A stretch of DNA of 64,000 nt from Ostreococcus lucimarinus (lineage: Eukaryota), in assembly GCA_000092065.1 (NCBI GenBank), contig CP000601.1. One strand, given 5' to 3'. This document shows, piece by piece, positions 1 through 59,032 of the stretch. The position numbers and the translations under genes were made by a program. The notes beneath the pieces were generated by a model. The model did no database searches. It was not told the DNA's origin and saw nothing but the letters and a program-made list of their open reading frames with translations. How positions within the stretch are numbered: the first letter of the stretch is position 1; each line of letters opens with the position of its first letter.

Positions 1-11
1 CGGGGAGTTAC

Positions 12-698
12 TTGTACGACACGTCGATTCCGCTCAAGCTGCCGTCGTTGTCGGAGAGCGTGCGCGTACCGGCGTACGTGGCACACGATTACATGCAGCG
101 CACGATGCGATTGACGGCATTTTCACGGTCGTGGCCGAGCTTGTTTGTCGCCGCGAAGAACACGCGATCGTCCCTGCACGTCGATCAGTGGCAGGGGCAC
201 TTTTTCATGGCCGTGGTGCGCGGCACGAAGCGATGGACCGTCTTCTCGCGCGAATCGCTCGCGTTTTTACGGCCGAGCTGGTCGCGCGGCACGCTCGATC
301 CCGCGATGCCACCGTTGGAGGAACAAGAAGAGATGGGAATGTTACCGCTCCCGCGTGAATTCGGCGCGCGCCGATGGGACGTCGATCTTGGCCCGGGCGA
401 GGTGCTTTTCGTGCCGGGCGGCTCGCCGCACGCCGTTCGAAACCTCGATTGCACGGTGGCGTTCGCGGGAAACTTCGTCGACGACGTCAATCTGGACCGC
501 GTGTTGGAAGATTTAAAGCTCATGGCCGCCAAAGATCCCGCGTTGATGGAGAGCTACCGAGCGCTCGACGAGGTGGATTTCGACGACGAAGGCGCCGCGC
601 TCGCGGCGGGCGACGACGACGTCCACGCGGGCGCGTTCGACGCGAACGCGCGCGTCGTGCGAGTCGCCGATTATCTCGCGGGGGGGCGACTCGTGTGA
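12..698 (+). CDS. JmjC-domain (cupin) hydroxylase/demethylase, C-terminal part; the gene begins upstream of the window
   Basis: Translation contains the JmjC Fe(II) motifs HVD (SSLHVDQWQGHFF) and a second His (VPGGSPHAVRNL) in a cupin-like context; acidic C-terminal tail; GC3-rich codon usage. The ORF runs from the window edge. Confidence 0.6.
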   Translation: MYDTSIPLKLPSLSESVRVPAYVAHDYMQRTMRLTAFSRSWPSLFVAAKNTRSSLHVDQWQGHFFMAVVRGTKRWTVFSRESLAFLRPSWSRGTLDPAMPPLEEQEEMGMLPLPREFGARRWDVDLGPGEVLFVPGGSPHAVRNLDCTVAFAGNFVDDVNLDRVLEDLKLMAAKDPALMESYRALDEVDFDDEGAALAAGDDDVHAGAFDANARVVRVADYLAGGRLV

Positions 699-810
699 TG
701 GGATGGATGTCTCGCGTCGCGTCTCGGAGTTCGGGACGAGGGGTTCGCGGCGTCGTGAAAAAGTGACAAAAAAATCAGGGAAGCCGAGCTCCCCCCATGG
801 GGGTGAATCT

Positions 811-1036
811 CACAGCGATAAATTTTTTAAAGTACTATCCGTCACCCCGAAACGACGAAAGTCACAGTGTTGTCGTGTCGCTTTTCCATCACGGACAATC
901 GGGTGTGGGAAAAAGTAAGGTGTGATGTCGACACATCTCTTCCTGCGGGTTTCGATCCCGCGGCTTCCAGATCTCTATCGGAGCAGCCGTCATATTCGAC
1001 GGAGACTTTTTCCTAACAGTCTGACACTCTACCAGC
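811..1036. repeat. 226-bp dispersed repeat, copy 1 (direct repeat partner of 6746..6971)
   Basis: Aligned by eye to 6746..6971 with 3 mismatches in 226 bp. Contains the palindrome-like core TGTCGACACATCTC (926..939) and a tRNA T-arm-like hairpin GCGGGTTTCGATCCCGC. Confidence 0.9.
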
Positions 1037-1666
1037 AAAATTGTTTACAGAGATACCGCGACGAGATTGAAGCAATACAAGGAACTCGATGGGCACCTGA
1101 TGAACGCCTCCGTGTGGGACGAGTATTTGACCCCAGAGATGCTCAGTCTGTATAATCCCGAAACAGACCAATTCGAGGAGCCCAAGCACTGGCTAAATGG
1201 GAAGCGTGTAGGAATTGCAATACTGGCGGATGATGTAAAATCGAGTCCGTTGCTGTCTAACAAAGCCTGGCGCAACCTGTGTATCAAATGCCGCCACCTT
1301 GGATCCTTCCCTGACAGTTCTCCACCAATAGGGTGCTCGATTTTCTGCGCGAGGTCAAGGACGCCGACGCGACGCTCCCAGACAAGTTGAAAGCCGAGGT
1401 ACCGACCATGCTTCAGAAAGGCGTGCGCGCGTATCTGGATTAAGCTTCACAAGTACCGTGGTGTGGGTAACATCTGGGACATCTTATCGAAATAATTCAT
1501 CGATGTTCGCCAGGAGATCGAGGAACAGGTGCCGTAAATTACGAAGAGCGTTTCGATTTACAATTTATATGATCCTCTAGCTTGAAAAATAGATCTCCGT
1601 CAGTGGCCGTGGGTGTGTTTGCCACAACTTGATTTGATAGTAATTGACATTTTTTTACCGCTCTCA

Positions 1667-3100
1667 TTAGTGCGCGTGTGCGTGTGAGTCTCCGCCACCG
1701 CCACCGCCTGTGCAATGCTTGTGGTTGAGGAGCACGAGACTGATGGCAACAACGCCGACGATGAAGGTGAGAATGCTCGTCGCGCGAAGACGAGGTGAAG
1801 TGGCGCTCACTGATACTCGGGGCATGCACTCTGCGGCGGCGATTTGCAGATAGACTCCAGCACCGAAGGCGAGCAGCAGTCCATGCCAGAAGTCGTTGTT
1901 ATTTCCCGATCCAACACTAATGAGGACGCCAAGAATGACACTCAAGCCGGAAACGAAGTTTAAAGTCAGCGTCGGCAACGGCGCGAGATCGCCCTGGAAG
2001 GGGTCTACGAGCACCAAGTAGTCAGCAAGCTCTTGAGCGATTTCGTGATAGACGGTCGCGGCGGTGATCGACCATCCCATGGTACTGTCGCAGTTCAGAA
2101 AGCCGAAGCCAATGAAAATACCATCCACTAGGTTGTGCATGAAATCTCCAAGAATGATACCACTTCGAACGCGATACTTGTGTGAGTTACAAGTACAAGT
2201 ATCACAGTCATCTTGAGCGCCTTTGACTGCAAGTTCCGCATCGGTTGTCTTCGCTGTATTTCCAAGAGTTGGGAACACGACAGAGATACCAAAGTCGATG
2301 AAGTAGGCCATGAGAAAGCCGAAGATAGAAGCGGAAGCCCACCATGCGGTCTGCTCTGCCTCATCCGAGCCAGCAGGTTTGATTAAATGCGTGGCTTCGT
2401 AGAACATCAGATAAAACGCAGCCGAAAGAAGTGCGCCGGCGGCAAACGAGTTAATTGTGCAACTCACAGTTTCAGGGTACGCTTTCTGCTTCTTAGCGAT
2501 ACTCGGGATGAGAAAGACCACACCAGAAAGTGTGACGATATTGACGATAATTGCCGCCCCAATGGCGTTGGCCCACGGTTTTGATTTCGATTCGCTCACG
2601 GTGGATGCTTCGGGAAGTGAAGCTTTTGGCACCACGTCATCTCCGTGGAGGTCCTTGAGATAGTGCGCGTCGCGCTCGAACTCGGTGGGAACGTGCTCAG
2701 CGAAGATTGAGATCGCGTCGATGCCAGTCGTATTAATCTTAAACGGCGTCGTGTGCCAGGTGTTGTCAAATTCAAGGTTGACACACCCACTATCAGGTGT
2801 CAAAACACTATCTCGTATCTTAGCCGTCGTACAAGCTCCCCCGATTGCGGTATCACCGCTATCCTCGCGGGCTTCGAGCTCGTCGTGTCCGGCGGCGATT
2901 TCGTCGTAGATGACCATTTTCATGGTATCGGCGGCGTACTTATCGGCCACCTTTTGCGCCTGCCACACGTATTCATTCTCTGGCGTCTCAAAGATTCCAG
3001 CCCATTCGAATGCGTGCGCGCCGGACGCGTGCGCGCCGCGCTGCGCGAGCGCGCTCGCGACGATCGCGATGCCACCACCGAGCGCGCTCGCGCAGCGCAT
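1667..3100 (-). CDS. ZIP-family (SLC39/ZRT-IRT-like) zinc/metal transporter
   Basis: ZIP signature in a TM helix (VYHEIAQELADYLVL, matching HExPHExGD), HNLVDG motif, multiple TM helices, N-terminal signal peptide (MRCASALGGGIAIVASALA). ORF 1667..3196 on the minus strand, with the likely start at the internal Met at 3100. Confidence 0.8.
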   Translation of the reverse strand: MRCASALGGGIAIVASALAQRGAHASGAHAFEWAGIFETPENEYVWQAQKVADKYAADTMKMVIYDEIAAGHDELEAREDSGDTAIGGACTTAKIRDSVLTPDSGCVNLEFDNTWHTTPFKINTTGIDAISIFAEHVPTEFERDAHYLKDLHGDDVVPKASLPEASTVSESKSKPWANAIGAAIIVNIVTLSGVVFLIPSIAKKQKAYPETVSCTINSFAAGALLSAAFYLMFYEATHLIKPAGSDEAEQTAWWASASIFGFLMAYFIDFGISVVFPTLGNTAKTTDAELAVKGAQDDCDTCTCNSHKYRVRSGIILGDFMHNLVDGIFIGFGFLNCDSTMGWSITAATVYHEIAQELADYLVLVDPFQGDLAPLPTLTLNFVSGLSVILGVLISVGSGNNNDFWHGLLLAFGAGVYLQIAAAECMPRVSVSATSPRLRATSILTFIVGVVAISLVLLNHKHCTGGGGGGDSHAHAH

Positions 3101-3196
3101 CGTTCGCCCTCGTCGTCGCTCGACCGTCCTCGCACCGCGTGCGCGTTCGCGCGGCGGCATCGTCGTCTTCGTGTTCTTCGTGTTTTCGTTCGTCAT

Positions 3197-3658
3197 CGTT
3201 TCCGTCGTCGTCGTCGTCTTCGCCGGCGTCGGTAAGTGCGGCTGCGCACAAACTAAAGCGGCATACGAACCGAACCGGCGCGATGGAGGGCGGTCGTTTA
3301 TAAGTCACGACTCGCGAACGACAAAATGTCGACATCCGCCGCAGTGTCGACACATCTCGGTGGTACTTGGATATGTCGAAATATGTCGACATGTGCGTCG
3401 AGACGTTTTTCGTATATAGATGCATCACGGGGTTCAATGCGTACACGCGCGTGGGTAAATATGTCGACATGCGTGTCGACATGTTTACGACGCGCGTCGC
3501 GACGCGATCCGTGATGGGCTTCGCGGGGCGTCGCGTACGACGATCCTCGACACGTGCACGACGCGAATCGTCGACACGTGCACGACGCGCGCGCATCGCC
3601 GCACTTCGCGACGCCTCTTCGGCTCGTTCGCGCGCGGAGACGTCGATCGCCGTACATC
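3197..3658. promoter_or_regulatory. Bidirectional promoter between ZIP(-) and COG0523(+) with a repeated palindromic element and two tandem G-box (CACGTG) 21-mers
   Basis: Copies of ATGTCGACAT (or its TGTCGACA core) at 3326-3335, 3344-3355, 3383-3392, 3461-3470 and 3474-3483, plus a half-site at 3371-3380. Tandem repeats TCGACACGTGCACGACGCG at 3547-3565 and 3568-3586. Confidence 0.6.
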
Positions 3659-5299
3659 ATGTCCACACCCGCCGCAATCGCCAATCATAATCGATTGCCG
3701 GTGACAACGCTGTGCGGGTTCCTCGGCGCTGGGAAGACGACAACTCTGAAACGCGTGCTCGAAGCTAAGCGAGACGCGAACGGAAAGTTTCGGTGTGCCG
3801 TCGTCGTGAACGACGTCGCGGAGTTGAACATCGACAAAAAATTAATCGATGATTCCGCTTTGCTGCAGAGCGACGAGGTGGTTGCCATGCAGAACGGATG
3901 CGTGTGCTGTTCGTTGAGCGGAGACTTTGTAAAACAAATCGGGGACATGGCCAAGAGTGGCAATTTTGACTACATGATCGTAGAGGCATCAGGAGTGTCG
4001 GAACCGGCGGAAATTGCGAAACTCTTCGCAAATTGTGAGGACGATCACGATCATGAAGCTGCGCACGTTGATGAGCATGAACATTTGAGCACACTGGCGC
4101 GGCTGGATACGTGCGTGACGGTCATCGCTGCAGGTGACTTTCTCGACATGATTGATTCTTTCAGGGCGTCAGCTGTGAACAGGCAGTCTTACTCTCAATT
4201 GTTGGCTGAACAGATAGAGTACGCGAATGTCGTCGTATTGAACAAGGTCGACACTGTCGATGACGAACAACTCGCCGAGATTAAAGCGCAGATACAACTT
4301 CTCAATTCACGTGCTGATATTCTTGAAGCTGTGAACGGCGCGATCGACGTTACGCGAATCGTCAATACAAAACTTTACAAAGAGAATGACTTTGCTGGTT
4401 TCATAACATGGGAACAAGAGATAGAAGCAACATCTGTGAAGTCATGCTGCGCCGGCGCTAGGGACAAAGGTGAGTCTCCATGCTGTAAGCGAGCTCGCAT
4501 GAGAGAAACAGCCTTAAGCGAGGTCACGCTTGCACCAAGTTCTTCCCAAACACGTCACGATAGTCGGTTCGGTATTACGTCTTTCATTTACCGAGCCAGA
4601 AGACCTTTTCATCCCAAACGGTTTTTAGGCTCATTTGTCGAGCGCTTCTTCAGCTCCCTCGAGGCCGATGACCGTGATGAAGAAAAAGATGAAGAGACAC
4701 CAAGTGTAGACTGGAGTGCAGTGAAAGATATTCGAGCGCGACAAGAAGCGATGAAACTCAAGCGCCGTAAAAGGGAAGGTGAAATTGGTGTGCTGCTACG
4801 TTCGAAGGGTGTAACGTGGCTCAGTGATGCCCACGACTTGATAATTGTTTTCAGTCAGGCTGGTAATATTTACTCTCTCGAAGGATCAAGCCGATGGACC
4901 GCGCTGAATAAAAATGCTTGGGTCGGCTCACAGGGGATAAAGCAAGAACTTCGTAAAGACTGGGAGGGGCCTTATGGTGATCGCCGACAAGAACTGGTGT
5001 TCATTGGCAAGGATCTTAAATACGATGAAATTCAATCAACGTTGGACTCTTGCCTCTTGACCGACGAAGAATTCGAAATGGGTTCTGATGGCTGGAGAGC
5101 AGTCATGGGTGATGTCTTTCTAGACGAAGACGACGAAGACGAAGACGACGAAGTCGATGACGAAGACGACGAAGAAATCGACGAAGATTTGGTCGACGAC
5201 GAGGAGATCGAAGAGGAGATCAGGCCGCAACCCACTTCAAAGTCGAAGGCAAAACCAAAGGCAAAGTCGGCGCCCTCTCAAAACGACGGCTTAGTCTGA
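3659..5299 (+). CDS. COG0523/CobW-family GTPase, ZNG1-like zinc metallochaperone
   Basis: P-loop GFLGAGKTT, the CxCC metal-binding motif (GCVCCS) and a His-rich stretch (EDDHDHEAAHVDEHEH) typical of Zn-linked COG0523; CobW_C-like C-terminus and a poly-acidic tail. The ORF opens at 3554, but the likely ATG is at 3659 (MSTPAAIANHNRLPVTT...). Confidence 0.85.
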   Translation: MSTPAAIANHNRLPVTTLCGFLGAGKTTTLKRVLEAKRDANGKFRCAVVVNDVAELNIDKKLIDDSALLQSDEVVAMQNGCVCCSLSGDFVKQIGDMAKSGNFDYMIVEASGVSEPAEIAKLFANCEDDHDHEAAHVDEHEHLSTLARLDTCVTVIAAGDFLDMIDSFRASAVNRQSYSQLLAEQIEYANVVVLNKVDTVDDEQLAEIKAQIQLLNSRADILEAVNGAIDVTRIVNTKLYKENDFAGFITWEQEIEATSVKSCCAGARDKGESPCCKRARMRETALSEVTLAPSSSQTRHDSRFGITSFIYRARRPFHPKRFLGSFVERFFSSLEADDRDEEKDEETPSVDWSAVKDIRARQEAMKLKRRKREGEIGVLLRSKGVTWLSDAHDLIIVFSQAGNIYSLEGSSRWTALNKNAWVGSQGIKQELRKDWEGPYGDRRQELVFIGKDLKYDEIQSTLDSCLLTDEEFEMGSDGWRAVMGDVFLDEDDEDEDDEVDDEDDEEIDEDLVDDEEIEEEIRPQPTSKSKAKPKAKSAPSQNDGLV

Positions 5300-5399
5300 T
5301 GTCTTTCTAGGTGACACTGAAGCGGAACAGGGTGGAGATGTGGACTCGGGCAACTCTTCCGACATGTAAGCTTGTCCTTTATAGTGAGCCCACACCGAT

Positions 5400-5696
5400 G
5401 TGAGCGCAAGTCATTTTTATGCACACAGTGACATCTTCATCGAATACCAGACGTGGTTGCCAGCGGCTGCGCGCGGTCAAGATAGCGCGACGAAGGTCGG
5501 CAATAAGCTCAAGGACTTCTTCAAGAAGGAAAAGGGCCACAGGGTCCCAATGGAAGAGGACCACCTGAGGCAAGGTAGAGACGAGAAGGGCGTCTATTGG
5601 GAAATTCACCGCGACGGGTGCTTCGAGTGGCTGAAGGACAATGGGTACACAGGGGAGACGGAGCTCGCGCCGGCGGTCGTCTGGTGCTCATACTAA
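5400..5696 (+). CDS. Hypothetical small protein (98 aa) in the lower-GC island
   Basis: Intact ORF with lower GC than its flanks. No recognisable domain. Confidence 0.3.
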   Translation: MSASHFYAHSDIFIEYQTWLPAAARGQDSATKVGNKLKDFFKKEKGHRVPMEEDHLRQGRDEKGVYWEIHRDGCFEWLKDNGYTGETELAPAVVWCSY

Positions 5697-5761
5697 TTTT
5701 GTAATTCGTACATTTGCAATATGAAGACTCAACGAGACACCAAAAAGACCATGGTTTGGAT

Positions 5762-5951
5762 CCTGACGAAATGACGAATGACGAACTGTTTTCATAAAGG
5801 TCCACACTGTTGCTTGTCATAGATCTAAAATAAAAATAAACATTAAAATATTTTAACATTTCGTCATTTTCATCATTGGTACACACAAAGTGTCACCGAA
5901 CGACGGGTTGACGAATTTGTGGACGACAAAACAAGTTCGTCATTTCGTCAG
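5762..5951. repeat. AT-rich segment flanked by 17-bp inverted repeats (CTGACGAAATGACGAAC at 5762-5785, GTTCGTCATTTCGTCAG at 5935-5951)
   Basis: The reverse complement of 5935-5951 equals 5762-5778. The roughly 150 bp between them is strongly AT-rich, in contrast to the roughly 68% GC of the surrounding sequence. Confidence 0.7.
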
Positions 5952-6130
5952 GTCTCGACGGATCACGAACGTCCAGGTGTGAAATCAGGCGGTTCGGTAT
6001 CTACATTCCGGACCTTGCAGCCCACGCAGCGATACGCGTACCTATGGTCTCTCGGATGTGACTGCAAACCGCAGGAGGAGGCACTTTTGGCAACAATATT
6101 TTCTTAGGGATAGATAGGTAACCAGGACAA

Positions 6131-6628
6131 ATGCCGTCGGGATGCGTGTACGAAATGTTTAGCGATAATGCGAAATGTAACAAAACGTACATCGGATCGA
6201 CGACGGGTTCGCTCAGAGCGCGCCTTGCCTCGCATAAATACGCACGACATCCAATCTTCACGTTTGGCGACGCGGACGTGAGAGTTCTCGAAAAGGACAT
6301 TCCAGCTGGAGAGCTCCATCAACGTAAAGGTGCCTACATGAGAGAGAAGCGTGACGGCTTATTCAACTCCCGAGCTGCTGGACGCAGCCAGAAACACGCG
6401 TGCCGCGAGAACGTGGACGAGAGTCCAGCCTACAGCAGAGCTCAATATACGCCGAAGCGGGACGGCGGCGATGGTAACTACAGACAACTCAATTATTACA
6501 AGCAGCACGCAAAAGGAATACTGCGCAAGACGTGCCTCAAGAATGCCCGAGCGCGCGGCACGCTGCCTTCGAAGCGCAGTCTCGACAAGTATCAATTTAC
6601 GGTAGATGAGTTACGCGGCTTGGCTTGA
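6131..6628 (+). CDS. GIY-YIG-like nuclease-domain protein (small, 165 aa)
   Basis: N-terminal GCVYEMF (GIY-like) followed by YIGSTTGSLRARLASH (YIG, conserved Arg, His) and a downstream Glu. GC is about 52%, well below the window average. Sits immediately upstream of repeat copy 2. Confidence 0.55.
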   Translation: MPSGCVYEMFSDNAKCNKTYIGSTTGSLRARLASHKYARHPIFTFGDADVRVLEKDIPAGELHQRKGAYMREKRDGLFNSRAAGRSQKHACRENVDESPAYSRAQYTPKRDGGDGNYRQLNYYKQHAKGILRKTCLKNARARGTLPSKRSLDKYQFTVDELRGLA

Positions 6629-6745
6629 CCACTTCACTCACACGATTGGTTCTGGAGAAATCTTACATGCGGTACATCAACGTCGATGTGCGGTTTTATC
6701 ATGTTGGGGTGCCCCAACTCAAAAAAAAAGTTTATTTTTATTACT

Positions 6746-6971
6746 CATAGCGATAAATTTTTTAAAGTACTATCCGTCACCCCGAAACGACGAAAGTCAC
6801 AGTGTTGTCGTGTCGCTTTTCCATCACGGACAATCGGGTATGGGAAAAAGTAAGGTTTGATGTCGACACATCTCTTCCTGCGGGTTTCGATCCCGCGGCT
6901 TCCAGATCTCTATCGGAGCAGCCGTCATATTCGACGGAGACTTTTTCCTAACAGTCTGACACTCTACCAGC
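6746..6971. repeat. 226-bp dispersed repeat, copy 2
   Basis: 98.7% identical to 811..1036 in the same orientation. Preceded by an A9 run (6721-6729). Confidence 0.9.
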
Positions 6972-7232
6972 TGAGTTAAGGAAGACTGTTTATGCATACG
7001 CACAACATCGCGGACATTCGACTGCCCATGCTCTTTATTTCGAGGCTTAACTCGGCGAGGTGGACGAATAATTGGTATTATACGTCGCTCGATGGTGGGT
7101 TTGCGACAGATCTTCGCGGCTTGACGCCGTCGATCCGCGATCGCGAATGTTACAGGTTGAGGGCTCGGGCGAGGACGTCGGTGGTTTTCGCGCGTTCGTT
7201 CGTTCGTCGTCACTCCGCGGTCGAATCCATCG

Positions 7233-10200
7233 GTGGATACGATGGATTCGACGCGGTGCGCGACGTGCCGGGCCGTCGTGCGCGGCGGCGCGGCGACGTG
7301 CGCGGAATGCGGGGCGCCGCAGGGCTACGATTCGGATTCGGACGCAACGATTCGCGTCGACGATGACGATGATGACGATGATTCTTCGCACTACGCCCGG
7401 GACGCCCGGGACTCGAGCGCTTCAGACGCCGACTCGAGCACTTCCGCCTCGTCCACGACTCGGCGTCGGCGGGAAGTCGAGTCGCGCGAGCGGGAGATGG
7501 AGGAATCGCCCGAGGCGTTGAAATTGTTGTACATGCTGAGTTTGTACACCGACGCGTCTCAGAAACAGTCGAAGTCGAAGTCTGCGGTTTCCAACAACAA
7601 CAACAACAAACGTTCTCCCTGGATTCGCGAGCTGCCGCTCCTGGTGCTCGTGTACGAGGGCATCGTGCGAAACGCGGTGTTCGATTACGATTACGCGCCA
7701 AAATCAGAAAAGATATTTGGAGCGTGTCCGAGGTATTTGAACGTCTCGGAAGAGGGACGAGACGATTTAGACGATTTGCGTGAGCTTGGTTTCATCACGG
7801 CGCTCAAGGTGACGAGCGAGACGTACGATCACTCGACGTTGTTGAAGATTTCCAAGAAGGGGAGCGAATTCTTGCAGAGGATGACGGCCTCGGGACGGTT
7901 CACGAGCGCGATGCGCCAGTCGGTAGATTCGTTGGTGCACGAAGCTGGTCACCTCCTCGAGGTGCGGTACGACCGCGAGTCCTCGGATTTTTTCCTCACC
8001 GTCCCCTCGATCGGGGTCCGCATCCGCTCCACCATCACGGACGTCGAAGACGTGCCGTACGTCTCGTCTCCGTACATCCCTCCGCACATGCTGAGCTCCG
8101 ATGCGTTCACACCGAACGCGTTGAACGGGCACAAAAAGGCAAAACGCGTGCTCGGCGGCGCCGTTCAAAGTAGTCGCGATATTCGCGACCCGCGCCTGAG
8201 TGAAAGTATCTTGCTCGACTCGGTGAAAATCATCGTCACCGAATACGTGCCGATGGGATCGAACGAAATGGTTTCTTTCTGTAGAAAACTCGGCACGGGA
8301 GACCGCGTCGCGGGCGGTATGTTCACCGCGGAAGCGAGCGCGACGCAGGACGAATTCAACATGGTGGTCGGGATCAACGCCGACAATAAAACCGAGCTAA
8401 AAGTCCTCGACGTCGACGAAACGCGATTCGTAAACGTCGAGGCAGACTTGCTCGCCACCGGGGCGCCCAAGAGTAACTTGGTGCAGCAGCAAATCGAGGT
8501 TTTCGGCATCAACTTTCGGGAAAACGGCGCCATCACTTACGGCATCGTCGTCAACGGCATCGCCGATCGAATTCGAAACGATATCAGCGTCGATTTACTC
8601 GCGCGCTTACTTTCCGACGTCCACGAAGACACGAGCTCGCTGGTGGGAAATTTATTTTCCGAGCGTCAGCGCTCCATGTTGAACATCACATACAAGGGCG
8701 AGCCGGACAATCGCGACAAGTTTACGTGCATCATCGCCGAGCGCGCGACGCCAAAACTGAAAGCCGCGGCGTACATGGATGGTGAAGATAACGAAAACGA
8801 GCTCAAGCAAGTCATCGGCGCGACGTTTTACGCGTACGACCTGAACGAACAAGAAGTCATCGTCTTTGGTTCACGCGGTGTCGTCGTCTTTGGTCCGCGC
8901 ACCGAACGTCATCACAAGCTTCTCGCGACATATTCAGCGTTCCAAGCTCGCTCGTTGTTCATCAAAAGTGTCTTCAGCAGTTGTTTCGCGCTGAACGACG
9001 AGTTGAAGAAGACGCGAGCGTTGATTGAAACCTATCAGATCGATCCGACGAACGTAACGCGCATTCGTTCGCGCCTCGCCGATCACACGACGACGGTGAC
9101 GATCTTGAGCGCCACTCAGCAGTTCGTGCTCGAGTCGCTCGAAAACGTCGACACGTCTCGTGAAAAGTTGAGCGCGGATATGAGCGACGGCGCGTCGCAA
9201 GTGTTGTACGACTTGTTTCAGTTGGAACCGTCGTGGAAACGCTTGCAAAGACGCGCCGTTGACTTGGAAAAAGTCATCGCGGCGTGCGTCAACGATCTCG
9301 AGTCTCTGCGAGAAATGAACGCCGTCATCGGCTCACGAAGAAAGCTCCGCATCAACGAGGCGATAGAAGGGACGACGAAAAACTTAGAGGATGCTTTCCG
9401 AGCGCAGGCGCGCAACAGCACCACGCTCGAGGTGACGCAAGTGATTTTGTCGGGGACGCTCGCGTTTGACATTCTCGATCGATTCACGGGGCAATACCTT
9501 TCGTTCACCGAGATTCGATGGGCCGTCGAAGCGGTGCAGCCGTACATAGTGAATGTTCCCGCGGTTTGGTTCATCTTGAACATGCTCGCGTGGTCGGCGT
9601 TGGGCGGTGGAATTGTTTATTTGATGCGCTACTTGGCCTACATGCATTGCAGCGTGGAGACGAAAAAGCTCACACTCAATAAACCCATTCATTTGTCGCG
9701 ATGGCGGCGATTCATCGCGACGCGCAACGTGGAGTCGACGGCTTTTAAGGAGGAGAACAACCGTCGCGTGGTGAAATACGGCTGGACCGAGCCCATCGAC
9801 GTCAAAAAGTGGAAAGGAACGCCCCCGAAGATTAACGTCACCATCGACGAGCGATACGGTTTCATCTTGCAAGCGATGATCATCATCAATAAGCGCACGT
9901 GTACGCTCTCCGGCGATGCGGTGTGGCGTCAATTTTGGAGCGATGTTTTCGTCGCTCGCAACGTCCACGATCAAAGTCGAGAGCTGTTTGACACCGACAC
10001 CGGCGACCGTTTGCAAACGGCCGAATATTCGTCAGAAGAAGAAGACGAGACTCGCCGCGACGTCACGGCCAAGATCATCGGCATCGACAACCGAAAGTCC
10101 ACGTTAAAGTGGCGCGATGGCAGGCAAATCCTCGCGCAAGACGACACCGACGACGACATCGATTCGGACGAGGAGGCGATCGCGAAGACGGGCGATTTGA

Positions 10201-10292
10201 CGTTTGAAGGCTTCGTCGCGTCCAGGTCGTTGAAACTCGCTCGAGAGGAAGAGAAGGCTAAAAAGAAACGAGCGGCAAGGATGGAAAAGTGA
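7233..10292 (+). CDS. Large hypothetical protein (1019 aa) with N-terminal CxxC...CxxC zinc ribbon, acidic and low-complexity tracts, and one predicted TM helix near residue 760
   Basis: Long uninterrupted GC3-rich ORF. No domain recognised by eye. Confidence 0.6.
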   Translation: MDTMDSTRCATCRAVVRGGAATCAECGAPQGYDSDSDATIRVDDDDDDDDSSHYARDARDSSASDADSSTSASSTTRRRREVESREREMEESPEALKLLYMLSLYTDASQKQSKSKSAVSNNNNNKRSPWIRELPLLVLVYEGIVRNAVFDYDYAPKSEKIFGACPRYLNVSEEGRDDLDDLRELGFITALKVTSETYDHSTLLKISKKGSEFLQRMTASGRFTSAMRQSVDSLVHEAGHLLEVRYDRESSDFFLTVPSIGVRIRSTITDVEDVPYVSSPYIPPHMLSSDAFTPNALNGHKKAKRVLGGAVQSSRDIRDPRLSESILLDSVKIIVTEYVPMGSNEMVSFCRKLGTGDRVAGGMFTAEASATQDEFNMVVGINADNKTELKVLDVDETRFVNVEADLLATGAPKSNLVQQQIEVFGINFRENGAITYGIVVNGIADRIRNDISVDLLARLLSDVHEDTSSLVGNLFSERQRSMLNITYKGEPDNRDKFTCIIAERATPKLKAAAYMDGEDNENELKQVIGATFYAYDLNEQEVIVFGSRGVVVFGPRTERHHKLLATYSAFQARSLFIKSVFSSCFALNDELKKTRALIETYQIDPTNVTRIRSRLADHTTTVTILSATQQFVLESLENVDTSREKLSADMSDGASQVLYDLFQLEPSWKRLQRRAVDLEKVIAACVNDLESLREMNAVIGSRRKLRINEAIEGTTKNLEDAFRAQARNSTTLEVTQVILSGTLAFDILDRFTGQYLSFTEIRWAVEAVQPYIVNVPAVWFILNMLAWSALGGGIVYLMRYLAYMHCSVETKKLTLNKPIHLSRWRRFIATRNVESTAFKEENNRRVVKYGWTEPIDVKKWKGTPPKINVTIDERYGFILQAMIIINKRTCTLSGDAVWRQFWSDVFVARNVHDQSRELFDTDTGDRLQTAEYSSEEEDETRRDVTAKIIGIDNRKSTLKWRDGRQILAQDDTDDDIDSDEEAIAKTGDLTFEGFVASRSLKLAREEEKAKKKRAARMEK

Positions 10293-56135: not shown

Positions 56136-57362
56136 TCAACCGTCCAGGTGCTCGTCCCATCCCAGGTCTCGTTTCGGCTTGCGCCTACCGACCAACTTGG
56201 CCGCGTCCAGTTCGGTCAACAATTCAATTTCGTCGAGTGTTTCCTCGCTCACATCGATGTCGTCCGTCACCGCGAGCTTTTGACCCTTTCTATGACGCTC
56301 GACGAGTTCTTCGAGATATCCTTGCTTTGCGTAGTTCGGTATCAACCTAGACATGTACACGCCGCGCAAAATACGTTTTTCTTCCTCAGTCAAATCGCCG
56401 TGAAACCCTCGGCGGTTGATCCGGTCCGTCACGGCGTGCGACATCACGAGCGCGGCGGCGACGGAAATGTTCAAAGACTCGGTGAAGCCAAACATCGGAA
56501 TGTACACGGCGCCATCCCGCAGCGCTCGCGCCTCGTCCGAAACCCCCTCGCGCTCGTTCCCAAACACCACCGCCGTGGGCACGGTCCAATCGTAATGCGA
56601 CAGCGGCTGCGCGCCGTCAAACTCAGTCGTAAGAACGCGGTATCCTTTCGCCTTCGCGACTCTGAGCGCGCGTTCCGACGTCTCAAACTGCTCCACGTGT
56701 TGCCACTTCAGCGCCCCTCCCGACGTCCTCCCGCTCGCCTTGAACGACAGCCCCTTCGAGCTCACGATCGACGCGCACCCGATCCCCAGCGCCTCCGTCG
56801 TCCGACACACCGCCAAGATATTGCCGACGTCGTAGACGCCCTCTAGAATCGGCAGCAACGAAAAACTTCTATGCTCCAAAACGTTTTCCAGCCGCATGCG
56901 TCGCTCTTCCCCGACCATCGCCGTCGCGAGCGCCACCATCGTCTCCGTCTCGCACGTCGCCCTCGCGAACGCGAATCCATCGCCGTACGGGAATCTTTCC
57001 CTCTCGTCCTCGTTCGCGCGCGTCCCCAAATCTTCCCGCCGCGCCCGCACCAGCCCGTGAAACTCCAGCGCGTCCGGCGCCCACGCGCGCTGCCTTCGGT
57101 GCGCCTTCGCGCTCTTCGTCGCCACCGCGCCCGTGCGCGCCACCGCGCGCGTCGGTCGCGGCGTCGTGCGCTTCACGACGACGTCGTGCGGGCCGGCGTG
57201 CGCGCGCGACCCCGGTTCCGACACCGATTCCGATTCCGCCGCGTCGTCGTCGCGCGCGCGTCGCGTCGCCGGTCGAGCGACGCGCGCGGCGCGCTCGCGA
57301 GCGTCGCGTCGATTCGCGTCGATTCGCGATCCCGCGCCCGCGATCGCGCGCGTCGACGCCAT
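56136..57362 (-). CDS. SpoU/TrmH-family RNA 2'-O-ribose methyltransferase
   Basis: SPOUT motifs VVFGNEREGVSDEARAL...YIPMFGFTESLNISVAAALV. N-terminal presequence-like region. Confidence 0.78.
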   Translation of the reverse strand: MASTRAIAGAGSRIDANRRDARERAARVARPATRRARDDDAAESESVSEPGSRAHAGPHDVVVKRTTPRPTRAVARTGAVATKSAKAHRRQRAWAPDALEFHGLVRARREDLGTRANEDERERFPYGDGFAFARATCETETMVALATAMVGEERRMRLENVLEHRSFSLLPILEGVYDVGNILAVCRTTEALGIGCASIVSSKGLSFKASGRTSGGALKWQHVEQFETSERALRVAKAKGYRVLTTEFDGAQPLSHYDWTVPTAVVFGNEREGVSDEARALRDGAVYIPMFGFTESLNISVAAALVMSHAVTDRINRRGFHGDLTEEEKRILRGVYMSRLIPNYAKQGYLEELVERHRKGQKLAVTDDIDVSEETLDEIELLTELDAAKLVGRRKPKRDLGWDEHLDG

Positions 57363-57520
57363 TCGAATCGCCGCGCGACGCGAAGTGTCGACATCGCGTC
57401 GCGCGGCGATTCGAATCGCGTCGCGCTCGAACGGCGTCGCGTCCTCGCGACGCGCGCGCGATGACGCGCGAACGTCGCGCGCGCGCCGCGCGGTCGCGGG
57501 GCGCGCGCGCGCGCGAGACG

Positions 57521-59032
57521 ATGGCGGCGGTGACGCTCGGGACGTTTTTGGTGTTGGGACGCGCGGGCGCGTTTCGCGGCGCGAGCGCGCGGCGCGCGCC
57601 GCTACAGGCGATGGACGCGGGCGCGGGAAGCGCGGGAGGGACGGCGTCGCGGCCGGCGCGGCGATGGATGACGCACCTGCTGCGCGATCACCCGGAGATG
57701 CGATGCACGCAGATTCCGAGCAAGCCGGTGATCGTCGGCGGCGACGGCGGCGGCGCGGGAAAGCCGCTGATGGAATTCCTGAGGGATTCGAACGCGGTGA
57801 CGTTCGGACCGACGGATAAGGATGGGAACAGCGACGCGGAGCGGTTGAGCGGGTTGGATGACATGGTGGTGGACGTCATGGCGTTTTCGAAGCGGTTGCT
57901 GTACGAACCGGATGATTTGCCGATGGATTTGCAAGCGGATTTAGCGAAACATTTGTGCGATATGTTTGCGAGACAGGAGAAGTGGTTGCACCCGGGATTG
58001 ACGATGAATGGGATACAACACGATCAAGAGGTCGGGCGGTGGGGATGGAAGGATCCGTTGGCGATGTATTTGGTGCCGATTTGGAGAGACGTGTACGGGC
58101 CGTCGGTGACGTACGTGCACTTGGTGCGGGATCCGCGGACGCTGCCGCTCGGGAATTTGCACGACAAGGAGCGGGATTTACAAAAGGCGTACTTTGGTCA
58201 AGAGCGATGGGAGCAGTTGACGGCAAAATTTGAATCCGAGTGGGCGCATCTCTCCCAGCACCAGTCGATGACGAGCGTGAAGAAGGACGACGTGATTGAT
58301 TTATTGCGCACGACGGCGTACTGGACGTCCATCAACTTTGAGCTCGGGGCGCTCATCAAGGGCCCGCTCAAGAACTACGCCACGGTGCTCCGGGCGGAGG
58401 ATTTGGTGCAACCGGACATGGATCACTTCCGACGCGACGCCACCGGGAAAAAACCGGAAAAGTACCAAGCCGCGCAAAAAGTCATGCAAGAGCTCACGAC
58501 GCTCCTCAAGCTCCCGGCGAAACTTTCCAACACGCTGGGAAGCCACGAACACATGAAGCAAAACCTCCGACGGTTCACGATCCACCGCGAAAAGTTCGTC
58601 TACCGCACCGACTCCCCCATCATCGAAGTCCAAACCCGCATCGCCGAGAAGACGTTGGAACTCTTCGGCTACTCCGCCGACGCCGCGCTCTTCGTCTCGC
58701 GGCACCCGTCGTCGAGCGAGCCCCACGGCCATCGTCTCACCCCCGAGGGCGAGTACATGCACGAGGAGCACAGGTATACTCCCGACGATTTCGAGCCCAC
58801 GATCGAACCCGCGTCGGAGGGCGATCTTCCCGGCATCACCAACCACGTCCTCGGCGCTCAGCTCAAGTACACCGACCGCGTCGAGCTCGAGCGCGCCAAG
58901 ACGCGCGCGCCCGACACGGAGCAATCTCGCGCCGTCGAGGCCCAGCTCATGGAGGCTAAGAAGAAGACCTTTTTGCTCGAAACCACCAAAATCGACGGCA
59001 AGTCTCTCAAGGACGTCATCGACCATCTGTGA
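57521..59032 (+). CDS. Hypothetical secreted protein (signal peptide; weak sulfotransferase-like RDPR motif)
   Basis: MAAVTLGTFLVLGRAGA signal-like start. HLVRDPRTL resembles the sulfotransferase 3'-phosphate-binding motif, but no convincing 5'PSB motif is present. Confidence 0.45.
   Translation: MAAVTLGTFLVLGRAGAFRGASARRAPLQAMDAGAGSAGGTASRPARRWMTHLLRDHPEMRCTQIPSKPVIVGGDGGGAGKPLMEFLRDSNAVTFGPTDKDGNSDAERLSGLDDMVVDVMAFSKRLLYEPDDLPMDLQADLAKHLCDMFARQEKWLHPGLTMNGIQHDQEVGRWGWKDPLAMYLVPIWRDVYGPSVTYVHLVRDPRTLPLGNLHDKERDLQKAYFGQERWEQLTAKFESEWAHLSQHQSMTSVKKDDVIDLLRTTAYWTSINFELGALIKGPLKNYATVLRAEDLVQPDMDHFRRDATGKKPEKYQAAQKVMQELTTLLKLPAKLSNTLGSHEHMKQNLRRFTIHREKFVYRTDSPIIEVQTRIAEKTLELFGYSADAALFVSRHPSSSEPHGHRLTPEGEYMHEEHRYTPDDFEPTIEPASEGDLPGITNHVLGAQLKYTDRVELERAKTRAPDTEQSRAVEAQLMEAKKKTFLLETTKIDGKSLKDVIDHL

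Follow-up and report, generated by a model that had tools for sequence, protein, structure and literature searches.

A probable tRNA-derived flanking duplication around a polymorphic, virus-associated zinc cassette in Ostreococcus lucimarinus

A stretch of 64,000 nucleotides from contig CP000601.1 of Ostreococcus lucimarinus (assembly GCA_000092065.1), called here the window, carries two direct repeats that bracket the genes of a ZIP zinc transporter and of a COG0523 GTPase. The repeat is a partial copy of a host tRNA-Asn gene together with its own 3′ flank and not a transposon. Comparison with empty and outgroup states of the locus shows that the bracketed cassette is an insertion, placed at nucleotides (nt) 14|15 of the tRNA. 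We consider it probable that the arrangement as a whole is a virus-associated, polymorphic insertion flanked by a duplication of tRNA-derived sequence, and that the repeats recombine with each other.

Genomes of Ostreococcus-type picoeukaryotes are usually described as compact and as stable outside two outlier chromosomes. The locus reported here holds a zinc-uptake cassette (ZIP and COG0523 with a promoter of zinc-deficiency type) that is a natural presence/absence, and probably also a copy-number, polymorphism, in physical linkage with a tRNA gene and virus relics. The locus illustrates a way in which nutrient-acquisition genes may be gained, lost or amplified by marine algae, and it points to tRNA genes as possible insertion hot spots of eukaryotic nuclear genomes that do not depend on a retrotransposon route.

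The repeat pair and its tRNA-Asn gene

The preliminary description of this DNA reported two repeats of 226 bp, 98.7% identical with three differences and lying 5.9 kb apart. A repeat search and blastn over the 64-kb window confirmed the pair and extended it by 2 nt to the left, giving 228 nt for each copy (809-1036 and 6744-6971, same orientation, start-to-start spacing of 5,935, identity of 98.7%). The three mismatches between the copies are at positions 813 (C/T), 905 (G/A) and 922 (G/T). A match of 228 nt cannot be of chance origin. No third copy was found in the window by blastn of the unit, the next best match being 14 nt long. The repeat copies, the tRNA gene and the chromosomal flanks are arranged as follows:

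1..698, plus strand: 3′ part of a JmjC/cupin gene (Pfam Cupin_8/JmjC), the left chromosomal flank; in empty alleles a single repeat comes directly after it
809..1036, no strand: repeat copy 1, 228 nt, made of a headless pseudo-tRNA (937-1036) and the native 3′ flank (809-936)
925..934, no strand: palindrome ATGTCGACAC of the zinc-deficiency response element (ZDRE) type in copy 1, beginning 3 nt past the 3′ end of the tRNA sequence; its copy-2 twin is at 6860-6869
6744..6971, no strand: repeat copy 2, made of tRNA nt 15-114 (6872-6971) and 128 nt of tRNA 3′ flank (6744-6871)
6872..6985, minus strand: intact nuclear tRNA-Asn(GUU) gene of 114 nt; its 41-nt intron (6908-6948) is at the canonical position 37/38
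7242..10292, plus strand: gene of 1,016 amino acids (aa) that forms the right chromosomal flank and runs divergently to the tRNA gene

Rfam RF00005 matches the tRNA-Asn gene over the full model (1-71), scoring 49 bits where the gathering score is 29 (E=1.4e-9), and this is the sole tRNA that Rfam finds in the window. After removal of the intron, the 73-nt tRNA folds as a perfect cloverleaf (-22.7 kcal/mol). ARAGORN missed the gene, probably owing to its intron. Copy 2 runs on into tRNA nt 1-14 at 6972-6985, which completes the gene, while copy 1 abuts unrelated DNA where these 14 nt would be expected and its region gives no Rfam tRNA match even at E≤10. Copy 1 is contiguous with the side of the JmjC gene, as is the single repeat of empty alleles. 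The repeat stands on both sides of the insert and therefore reads as a complete tRNA gene on the right and as a headless copy on the left.

The repeat begins with CTCA and finishes with CAGC, and its flanks are GGTGAAT / AAAATTG and TTTATTA / TGAGTTA. Inspection of ends and flanks revealed no TG..CA ends, short target-site duplications (TSDs), primer-binding site (PBS) or polypurine tract (PPT) at either copy; TG...CA termini and TSDs were the signs that the preliminary description had proposed to look for. The repeat search found no inverted repeat joining the repeat ends or the cargo ends, hence no terminal inverted repeats (TIRs). Copy number was assessed in the window and in 42 environmental contigs: all 44 repeat instances are at one locus, with four flank classes. 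The invariant 34-mer of the tRNA intron has no match in the IMG/VR viral contigs.

Some other characters of the tRNA gene deserve mention. Its T-loop is AUCGAAA (A54, A60), which is typical of eukaryotic initiator tRNA, and its acceptor stem starts with U1-A72, as in bacterial and plastid tRNA-Asn. Each of these characters is unusual in a nuclear elongator tRNA. Many wild alleles, as well as the divergent lineage L028/L029, carry insertions on the tRNA sense strand, of which the reference strain has neither. The T-arm insertion measures 87 nt and is found at points matching window positions 946 and 6881 (e.g., L003 1241-1327), and the D-arm insertion measures 100 nt and lies at tRNA nt 16|17, window point 6969|6970 (e.g., L011 1807-1906). 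Both have signals of spliceosomal introns (GTAAGT ... ACTGAC ... CAG) and no TSD, and would disrupt a gene transcribed by RNA polymerase III (Pol III) unless removed. They may be introner-like transposons, or introns of an RNA polymerase II (Pol II) transcript from the minus strand; their assignment to Micromonas-type introner elements was rejected, no further copy being found in the window or in the fetched loci.

States of the locus in wild populations

Approximately 40 environmental contigs with 96-100% identity were mapped on the window. They were collected as contigs encoding window proteins exactly and by one metagenome scan with the invariant tRNA-intron 34-mer. The comparison of related genomes suggested in the preliminary description yielded both empty and occupied forms among them, and shows that the locus of wild O. 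lucimarinus segregates as empty, occupied, internally deleted and differently loaded states.

The empty sites (L031, L025 and L030) have no cassette: a single 228-nt segment stands after the JmjC gene and leads into tRNA nt 1-14 and on to the 1,016/1,028-aa gene. The tRNA of L031 is intact by Rfam. The divergent lineage L028/L029 (85-96% identity) is also empty, and its tRNA 3′ flank is shorter and different. Occupied sites like that of the window are found in L004, L014, L026, L027 and L049-L052. The internally deleted form (L001-3, L005, L008, L044, L046 and L047) lacks the following segment:

5758..6830, no strand: deleted segment of 1,073 bp, with TGG in its place; the deletion takes the hairpin, the GIY-YIG ORF (open reading frame) and the first 87 nt of copy 2

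The fourth form, in L022/L023, is loaded differently. The repeat stops at the same tRNA nt 14|15 and is followed by another cargo of 3.8 kb and 63% GC (cargo B), which is absent from the window. Cargo B gives way to another 3′ part of tRNA-Asn, which has a variant intron and a T-rich flank of its own, and the tRNA head comes last. The ORFs of cargo B match no recombinase family. It includes a 487-aa ORF without family match, whose 3′ end continues into the repeat, and a tandem array (L022 3560-3800) in which three GGGCAAAAATGCCCGCGGC units come after six 30-nt units GTGACAACGCTTAATTAAGCGTTCGAGCGC.

At least 10 independent contigs, from various projects and assemblers, extend across both copies and the cargo in the order of the window (L003, L004, L014, L044, L046 and L049-L052 fully; L026, L027 and L050 partly). 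Other arrangements were also met. The junction contigs L019 and L006 read from the cassette end through a repeat to the cassette start (1037). An alternative left arm, which we name the LHC arm, is present in L043 (1-7294; three samples) and in L006 (1-1798) and carries genes for TPT, a choline transporter, an exonuclease and LHC. It joins the common right arm, from COG0523 to the tRNA, at approximately window position 3400, inside the ZDRE promoter, in independent assemblies. In L042 (98.6% identity) another, AT-rich sequence lies left of 1037. L006 had at first seemed an assembly chimera; its LHC junction is confirmed by L043, and its repeat-to-1037 join would need k≤91.

The two copies differ in type. 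The JmjC-side copy of all wild contigs has 863T, 869T and 929T and the 87-nt T-arm insertion, markers identical to those of the empty alleles L025/L030, while the copy on the side of the tRNA head is of a distinct type, common to the LHC-arm haplotype L043. Sharing of markers with the empty alleles indicates that the JmjC-side copy is the resident one and that the other copy came with the cassette. Copy 1 of the reference strain looks converted to the copy-2 type save at 813, 905 and 922. The repeat at the L019 junction is a hybrid, of copy-2 type at 814/863 and of copy-1 type at 869/929 with the T-arm insertion; as these variant sites are less than 60 nt apart, an assembler working at k=127 could not have made the hybrid from separate copies. 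The L031 repeat is hybrid-like too, with 863T and 869T and without 929T and the T-arm insertion. Such hybrid repeats indicate that the two copies recombine. From these sequences we infer that the copies can mediate loss of the cassette, and they probably also mediate its tandem gain or its excision as a circle.

Contents of the insert

The bracketed segment (1037-6743, about 5.7 kb) sits between tRNA nt 14 and nt 15 and has a GC content of 51.8% against 61.0% for the window. The components listed in the preliminary description (lower-GC segments, broken ORFs, the ZIP/COG0523 pair, a small ORF, an AT-rich hairpin and a GIY-YIG-like ORF) are all present. The cargo is a mosaic of virus-like element relics at both ends with ZIP and COG0523 between them:

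1037..1660, plus strand: predicted relic of an A32/FtsK-HerA-type viral DNA-packaging ATPase (the broken ORFs), N-terminally truncated and frameshifted
1667..3100, minus strand: ZIP zinc transporter, 477 aa (Pfam PF02535, E=1.2e-21; exact match to ABP01263.1/ABO99284.1)
3197..3658, no strand: divergent ZIP/COG0523 promoter region with five RTGTCGACAY palindromes (3326, 3344, 3383, 3461, 3473) and a 78-nt tandem unit
3659..5299, plus strand: COG0523 (CobW/G3E) GTPase, 546 aa, GC 49.7% (Pfam cobW 5.2e-41, CobW_C 1.2e-18)
5425..6739, plus strand: 3′ fragment of a primase-helicase and GIY-YIG element (element E), with the primase-helicase tail, the hairpin and the GIY-YIG-like ORF
5400-5696: 98-aa ORF containing the last 90 codons of a 733-aa DUF5906 primase-helicase
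5762-5953: hairpin with inverted-repeat arms 5762-5778 and 5937-5953 and an AT-rich core
6131-6628: GIY-YIG-like ORF, 165 aa, accession ABP01176.1, 116 nt from the repeat

All ORFs of at least 150 aa within 1037-6743 are ZIP, COG0523, GIY-YIG or overlaps of these. Pfam identified no integrase or transposase among the ORFs of this segment, where no unassigned space is left for a gene of at least 250 aa, and ORF, Pfam and repeat searches found there no double jelly-roll major capsid gene, integrase or TIRs.

The left end (1037-1660) is, by structure prediction, a relic of a viral packaging ATPase. Homologues of the relic (P0241-P0248) are 63-95% identical and define a parent P-loop protein of about 300 aa, for which a profile search collected 295 relatives. 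Pfam, PHROGs and PDB sequence searches left the family unnamed. An AlphaFold2 (AF2) model from a 66-sequence alignment reached a pLDDT of 95.5 (an earlier model from 8 sequences, with a pLDDT of 41, was unusable). In a Foldseek comparison of the model with BFVD the top match was R4TIK5 (E=1.7e-21, TMq 0.87), followed by A32-like packaging ATPases and the mavirus FtsK-HerA ATPase, and the best structural match in the PDB was the packaging NTPase B204 of STIV2. One relative is encoded on an IMG/VR contig and gives a borderline Pox_A32 match. In L041 an intact ATPase gene comes after a DUF5906 primase-helicase. A tblastx search of 1037-1666 against all fetched loci returned self matches only.

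The right end is the 3′ fragment of element E. The primase-helicase tail is 95.6% identical over 90 aa by tblastn and is matched by Pfam DUF5906 and by the PHROGs DNA primase (1.1e-30). The 165-aa ORF is named "GIY-YIG domain-containing protein" in UniProt, and its match to Pfam PF01541 is weak (E=0.0093, 16.7 bits against a cut-off of 22.6, N-terminal 34 residues only). The segment 5425-6739 has 94.1% DNA identity to contigs L035-L040 of another Ostreococcus species, though ZIP is only 82% identical. The right end of element E (6743) meets the start of repeat copy 2, and the homologous element stops at the same place in L036; no tRNA adjoins the copies of the element in the other species. The A9 run that the preliminary description had noted before copy 2 is present (6721-6729) but is not a retroposon tail: it belongs to the 3′ end of the virus-like element, and the element of the other species has a shorter A run at the same place.

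In L035-L040 the full element (about 3050/3230-6605) measures approximately 3.4 kb and encodes a 733-aa prim-pol/DUF5906 helicase and a 165-aa GIY-YIG-like protein. In these six long contigs of one species its left neighbour varies (ZIP/bZIP, LHC, an ankyrin gene, other) and its right neighbour is constant; the element lies mostly near contig ends. The GIY-YIG protein cluster has 898 members, and a paralogue with at least 90% identity is encoded on another chromosome of strain CCE9901 (ABO99767.1). A search of IMG/VR with the GIY-YIG and primase-helicase proteins retrieved no relatives.

The two zinc-related genes differ in their relationships. ZIP has orthologues in other Ostreococcus lineages with graded identity (91-79%), and in three sister lineages it occupies a different locus, adjoining a bZIP gene. 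Relatives of the cargo COG0523 have 97-100% identity and then, after a gap, 53% (Cymbomonas, diatoms and other stramenopiles); the cobW genes found near ZIP in sister species are only 29-35% identical to it. On these sequence comparisons the cargo COG0523 appears confined to the O. lucimarinus lineage and is a candidate horizontal acquisition. The empty alleles, the virus-like relics and the gap from 97% to 53% in COG0523 all support the other proposal of the preliminary description, that of a composite unit, mobile or acquired, between the repeats. COG0523 has a variable acidic tail, with 546-aa and 507-aa forms, the latter lacking 5124-5296.

The motif RTGTCGACAY, known as the zinc-deficiency response element of land plants, is observed eight times in the window versus 0.54 expected: five copies are in 3326-3482, one is in each repeat copy (925-934 and 6860-6869) and one is at 57385-57394. 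In many wild alleles the promoter part 3375-3626 is swapped for an unrelated sequence of about 313-325 nt, and some haplotypes have an extra copy of the 78-nt unit. The motif is also found upstream of ZIP in three sister Ostreococcus lineages (L033 9738/9756, L034 9538-9619, L036 1092/1110), in which a bZIP_2 gene lies divergent beside ZIP. The algal bZIP is without the N-terminal Cys/His motif and has a conserved C-terminal KHFLExYxTHGDACxC. Castro et al. 2017 reported no F-bZIP in O. lucimarinus and put the origin of the zinc-deficiency circuit in land plants; exact zinc-deficiency elements and a bZIP gene beside ZIP in the sister lineages bear on this view of a land-plant-only origin (PMC5476651).

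Exact protein matches (GIY-YIG ORF, ZIP and sulfotransferase) assign the window to strain CCE9901 of O. lucimarinus; an early attribution to Micromonas was dropped. As to the chromosomal setting, two identical accessions (ABO99... and ABP01...) exist for several of the proteins that were checked from ZIP (1667-3100) up to the gene at 56136-57362, and the sulfotransferase at 57461-59032 has a single one (ABP01193.1). Second identical accessions for most of the proteins checked place the region within a segment present on two reference chromosomes. The right edge of this segmental duplication may be near 57.4 kb, where a long palindrome centred on GTGTCGACAT is found (57363-57415).

Origin of the arrangement and known systems

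For the founding event we favour one join, made where the tRNA D-loop had broken. Its partners would be the resident arm with the JmjC gene and a repeat, and a donor whose cassette already preceded a repeat and tRNA of the same kind, an arrangement like that of the LHC arm or of L042, each partner giving one of the two repeats. The flanking repeats now probably serve as recombination substrates. As to the route, a join through microhomology or induced by a break, with a paralogous or allelic copy of the chromosome as partner, has nearly an even chance. Campbell-type homologous integration of a repeat-carrying circle is well possible, if clearly short of even, and matches the marker pattern equally well if the crossover was in the invariant last 91 nt; an enzyme-targeted event has a limited chance. 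The sequence left of 1037 in L042 contains CTCCACCAG, which ends 8 nt before the junction and has an 8/9 match to the tRNA end CTCTACCAG. This microhomology supports a founding event by a single join. Three independent events within 3 nt (cargo A, i.e., the cargo of the window, cargo B and the 100-nt insertion at nt 16|17) mark the D-loop as a hot spot.

Several points weigh against a tRNA-derived flanking duplication made in this way. The L042 microhomology (P about 0.0016 by simulation) was noticed post hoc. No donor molecule was seen end to end, L042 being a 2.8-kb contig with 3x coverage. The empty alleles may have arisen by pop-out and need not be ancestral; the repeat of L031 is hybrid-like. 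That two cargos entered at exactly one tRNA nucleotide is also what a site-specific enzyme would produce. The environmental evidence consists of short-read metagenome contigs from mixed populations, and the presence of the region on two reference chromosomes makes "alleles" and "paralogous copies" indistinguishable.

Site-specific integration would involve a virus-like element whose attP mimics tRNA-Asn from nt 15 to its end and which entered by means of its own recombinase or of GIY-YIG cleavage, regenerating the tRNA, leaving the displaced 3′ part at the far end and losing the enzyme in later decay. Much of the locus has the expected appearance: the tRNA is intact on one side and its 3′ part recurs as a direct repeat on the far side, an empty site is known, viral relics lie at both cargo ends and, in L022, an unrelated cargo brings its own variant tRNA 3′ part and flank to the same nucleotide. 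We nevertheless regard it as unlikely, because no integrase is encoded in 1037-6743 nor is there room for one, the cargo B ORFs match no recombinase family, and the 228-nt homology, with its 128 nt of native host flank, far exceeds an att core. The ATPase relic is cut exactly at the junction, which resembles a random break and not an element terminus. The right end of element E does meet the repeat start, in L036 ending at the same point, and the GIY-YIG ORF is only 116 nt away, but the copies of the primase-helicase/GIY-YIG pair in another species are not beside a tRNA and the GIY-YIG assignment itself is below the Pfam cut-off (E=0.0093). A bolder idea, to which we give a small chance, is that a nuclease, from the GIY-YIG ORF or from the flanking virus family, targets the tRNA-Asn D-loop as a landing site within a eukaryotic nucleus, and that the zinc island is an adaptive cassette mobilisable between O. 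lucimarinus genomes or chromosomes. If so, the island would move by break repair or as a circle, as a eukaryotic counterpart of bacterial tRNA-linked islands, and the D-arm insertion found in many GIY-YIG-bearing alleles would amount to target-site immunity.

The occupied state might instead be ancestral, with the JmjC-side copy made by local duplication and all empty alleles arising as later deletions between the copies. Direct repeats 5.9 kb apart do delete the interval between them by homologous recombination, the empty-allele repeat of L031 looks hybrid and ZIP is on both twin chromosomal copies of the reference. This is very unlikely given that L028/L029, the more divergent lineage, is empty too, with a tRNA 3′ flank that is shorter and different, that the cargo is foreign in composition and phylogeny and that ZIP is elsewhere, beside a bZIP gene, in three sister lineages; local duplication would also leave unexplained the exact end at tRNA nt 15 and the second cargo at the same point. 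The preliminary description had favoured a dispersed element, i.e., a solo long terminal repeat (LTR), the terminal repeat of a terminal-repeat retrotransposon in miniature (TRIM) or large retrotransposon derivative (LARD), a tRNA-derived short interspersed nuclear element (SINE) or a miniature inverted-repeat transposable element (MITE). A short, highly conserved, direct and tRNA-related repeat with an A9 run beside copy 2 invites such a reading, which the data refute and which we now hold to be extremely improbable: there are only two copies in the window, the environmental 34-mer instances are all at this one locus and none is in viral contigs, and TG..CA ends, TIRs, short TSDs, PBS and PPT are all lacking. 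Moreover, copy 2 is within a tRNA gene that folds as a cloverleaf, copy 1 is without the A-box-bearing 5′ end of the tRNA that a SINE requires, and the unit is ordinary single-copy host DNA in the empty allele, a piece of tRNA-Asn with its own flank. A collapsed or mis-joined repeat in the reference assembly, which the annotation of this segment twice in the reference could bring to mind, has practically no chance in view of the at least 10 independent metagenome contigs with the same order across both copies and the cargo.

Our preferred reading, a tRNA-derived flanking duplication of a virus-associated insertion, has partial likenesses to several known systems. The tRNA-derived SINEs and solo LTRs share with it short conserved direct repeats related to tRNA; unlike them, the present repeat is at a single locus without TSDs or terminal motifs, one copy being a working-looking tRNA gene and the other lacking the promoter-bearing 5′ end. 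Variants made by non-allelic homologous recombination (NAHR) between low-copy direct repeats are alike in that a segment is deleted or duplicated in the population and hybrid repeats occur (L019, L031), but the repeats here are only 228 bp long and were made by the insertion itself, and the segment is a virus/host mosaic.

Endogenous polinton-like viruses (PLVs) and virophages of protists have been surveyed by Bellas et al. 2023 (PMC10120064), who found one to two such capsid genes in Ostreococcus, and a cryptophyte PLV study (PMC12220804) found no tRNA genes within 1 kb of PLV insertions. The A32/FtsK-HerA packaging ATPase, the primase-helicase and a GC content differing from that of the host recall these elements. 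Unlike them, the locus has fragments only, with no capsid gene, TIRs or integrase, and host-type zinc genes lie between the relics.

Free-standing GIY-YIG homing endonucleases are known, such as SegB of phage T4, which cuts in a tRNA gene region. By analogy, a small GIY-YIG-like ORF beside a tRNA gene, multi-copy and polymorphic for presence, might be of this kind; in contrast, the domain match here is below the Pfam threshold and the cassette exists without the ORF in deletion alleles.

The tRNA-linked islands and integrative elements of bacteria and archaea include P4-type prophages, SSV-type viruses and pathogenicity islands. The present locus departs from them in belonging to a eukaryotic nuclear genome, in having no integrase in the cargo ORFs and in its 228-nt repeat with 128 nt of host flank in place of a short att core; its break is in the D-loop (nt 14|15) and not in the anticodon or T-arm, with possible microhomology at the junction. 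In other respects it is built like them: the insertion is in a tRNA gene that stays intact at one end while its 3′ part is directly repeated at the opposite end, the composition is foreign, adaptive (metal-uptake) and virus genes are carried together, relatives have empty sites and a second cargo has entered the same tRNA.

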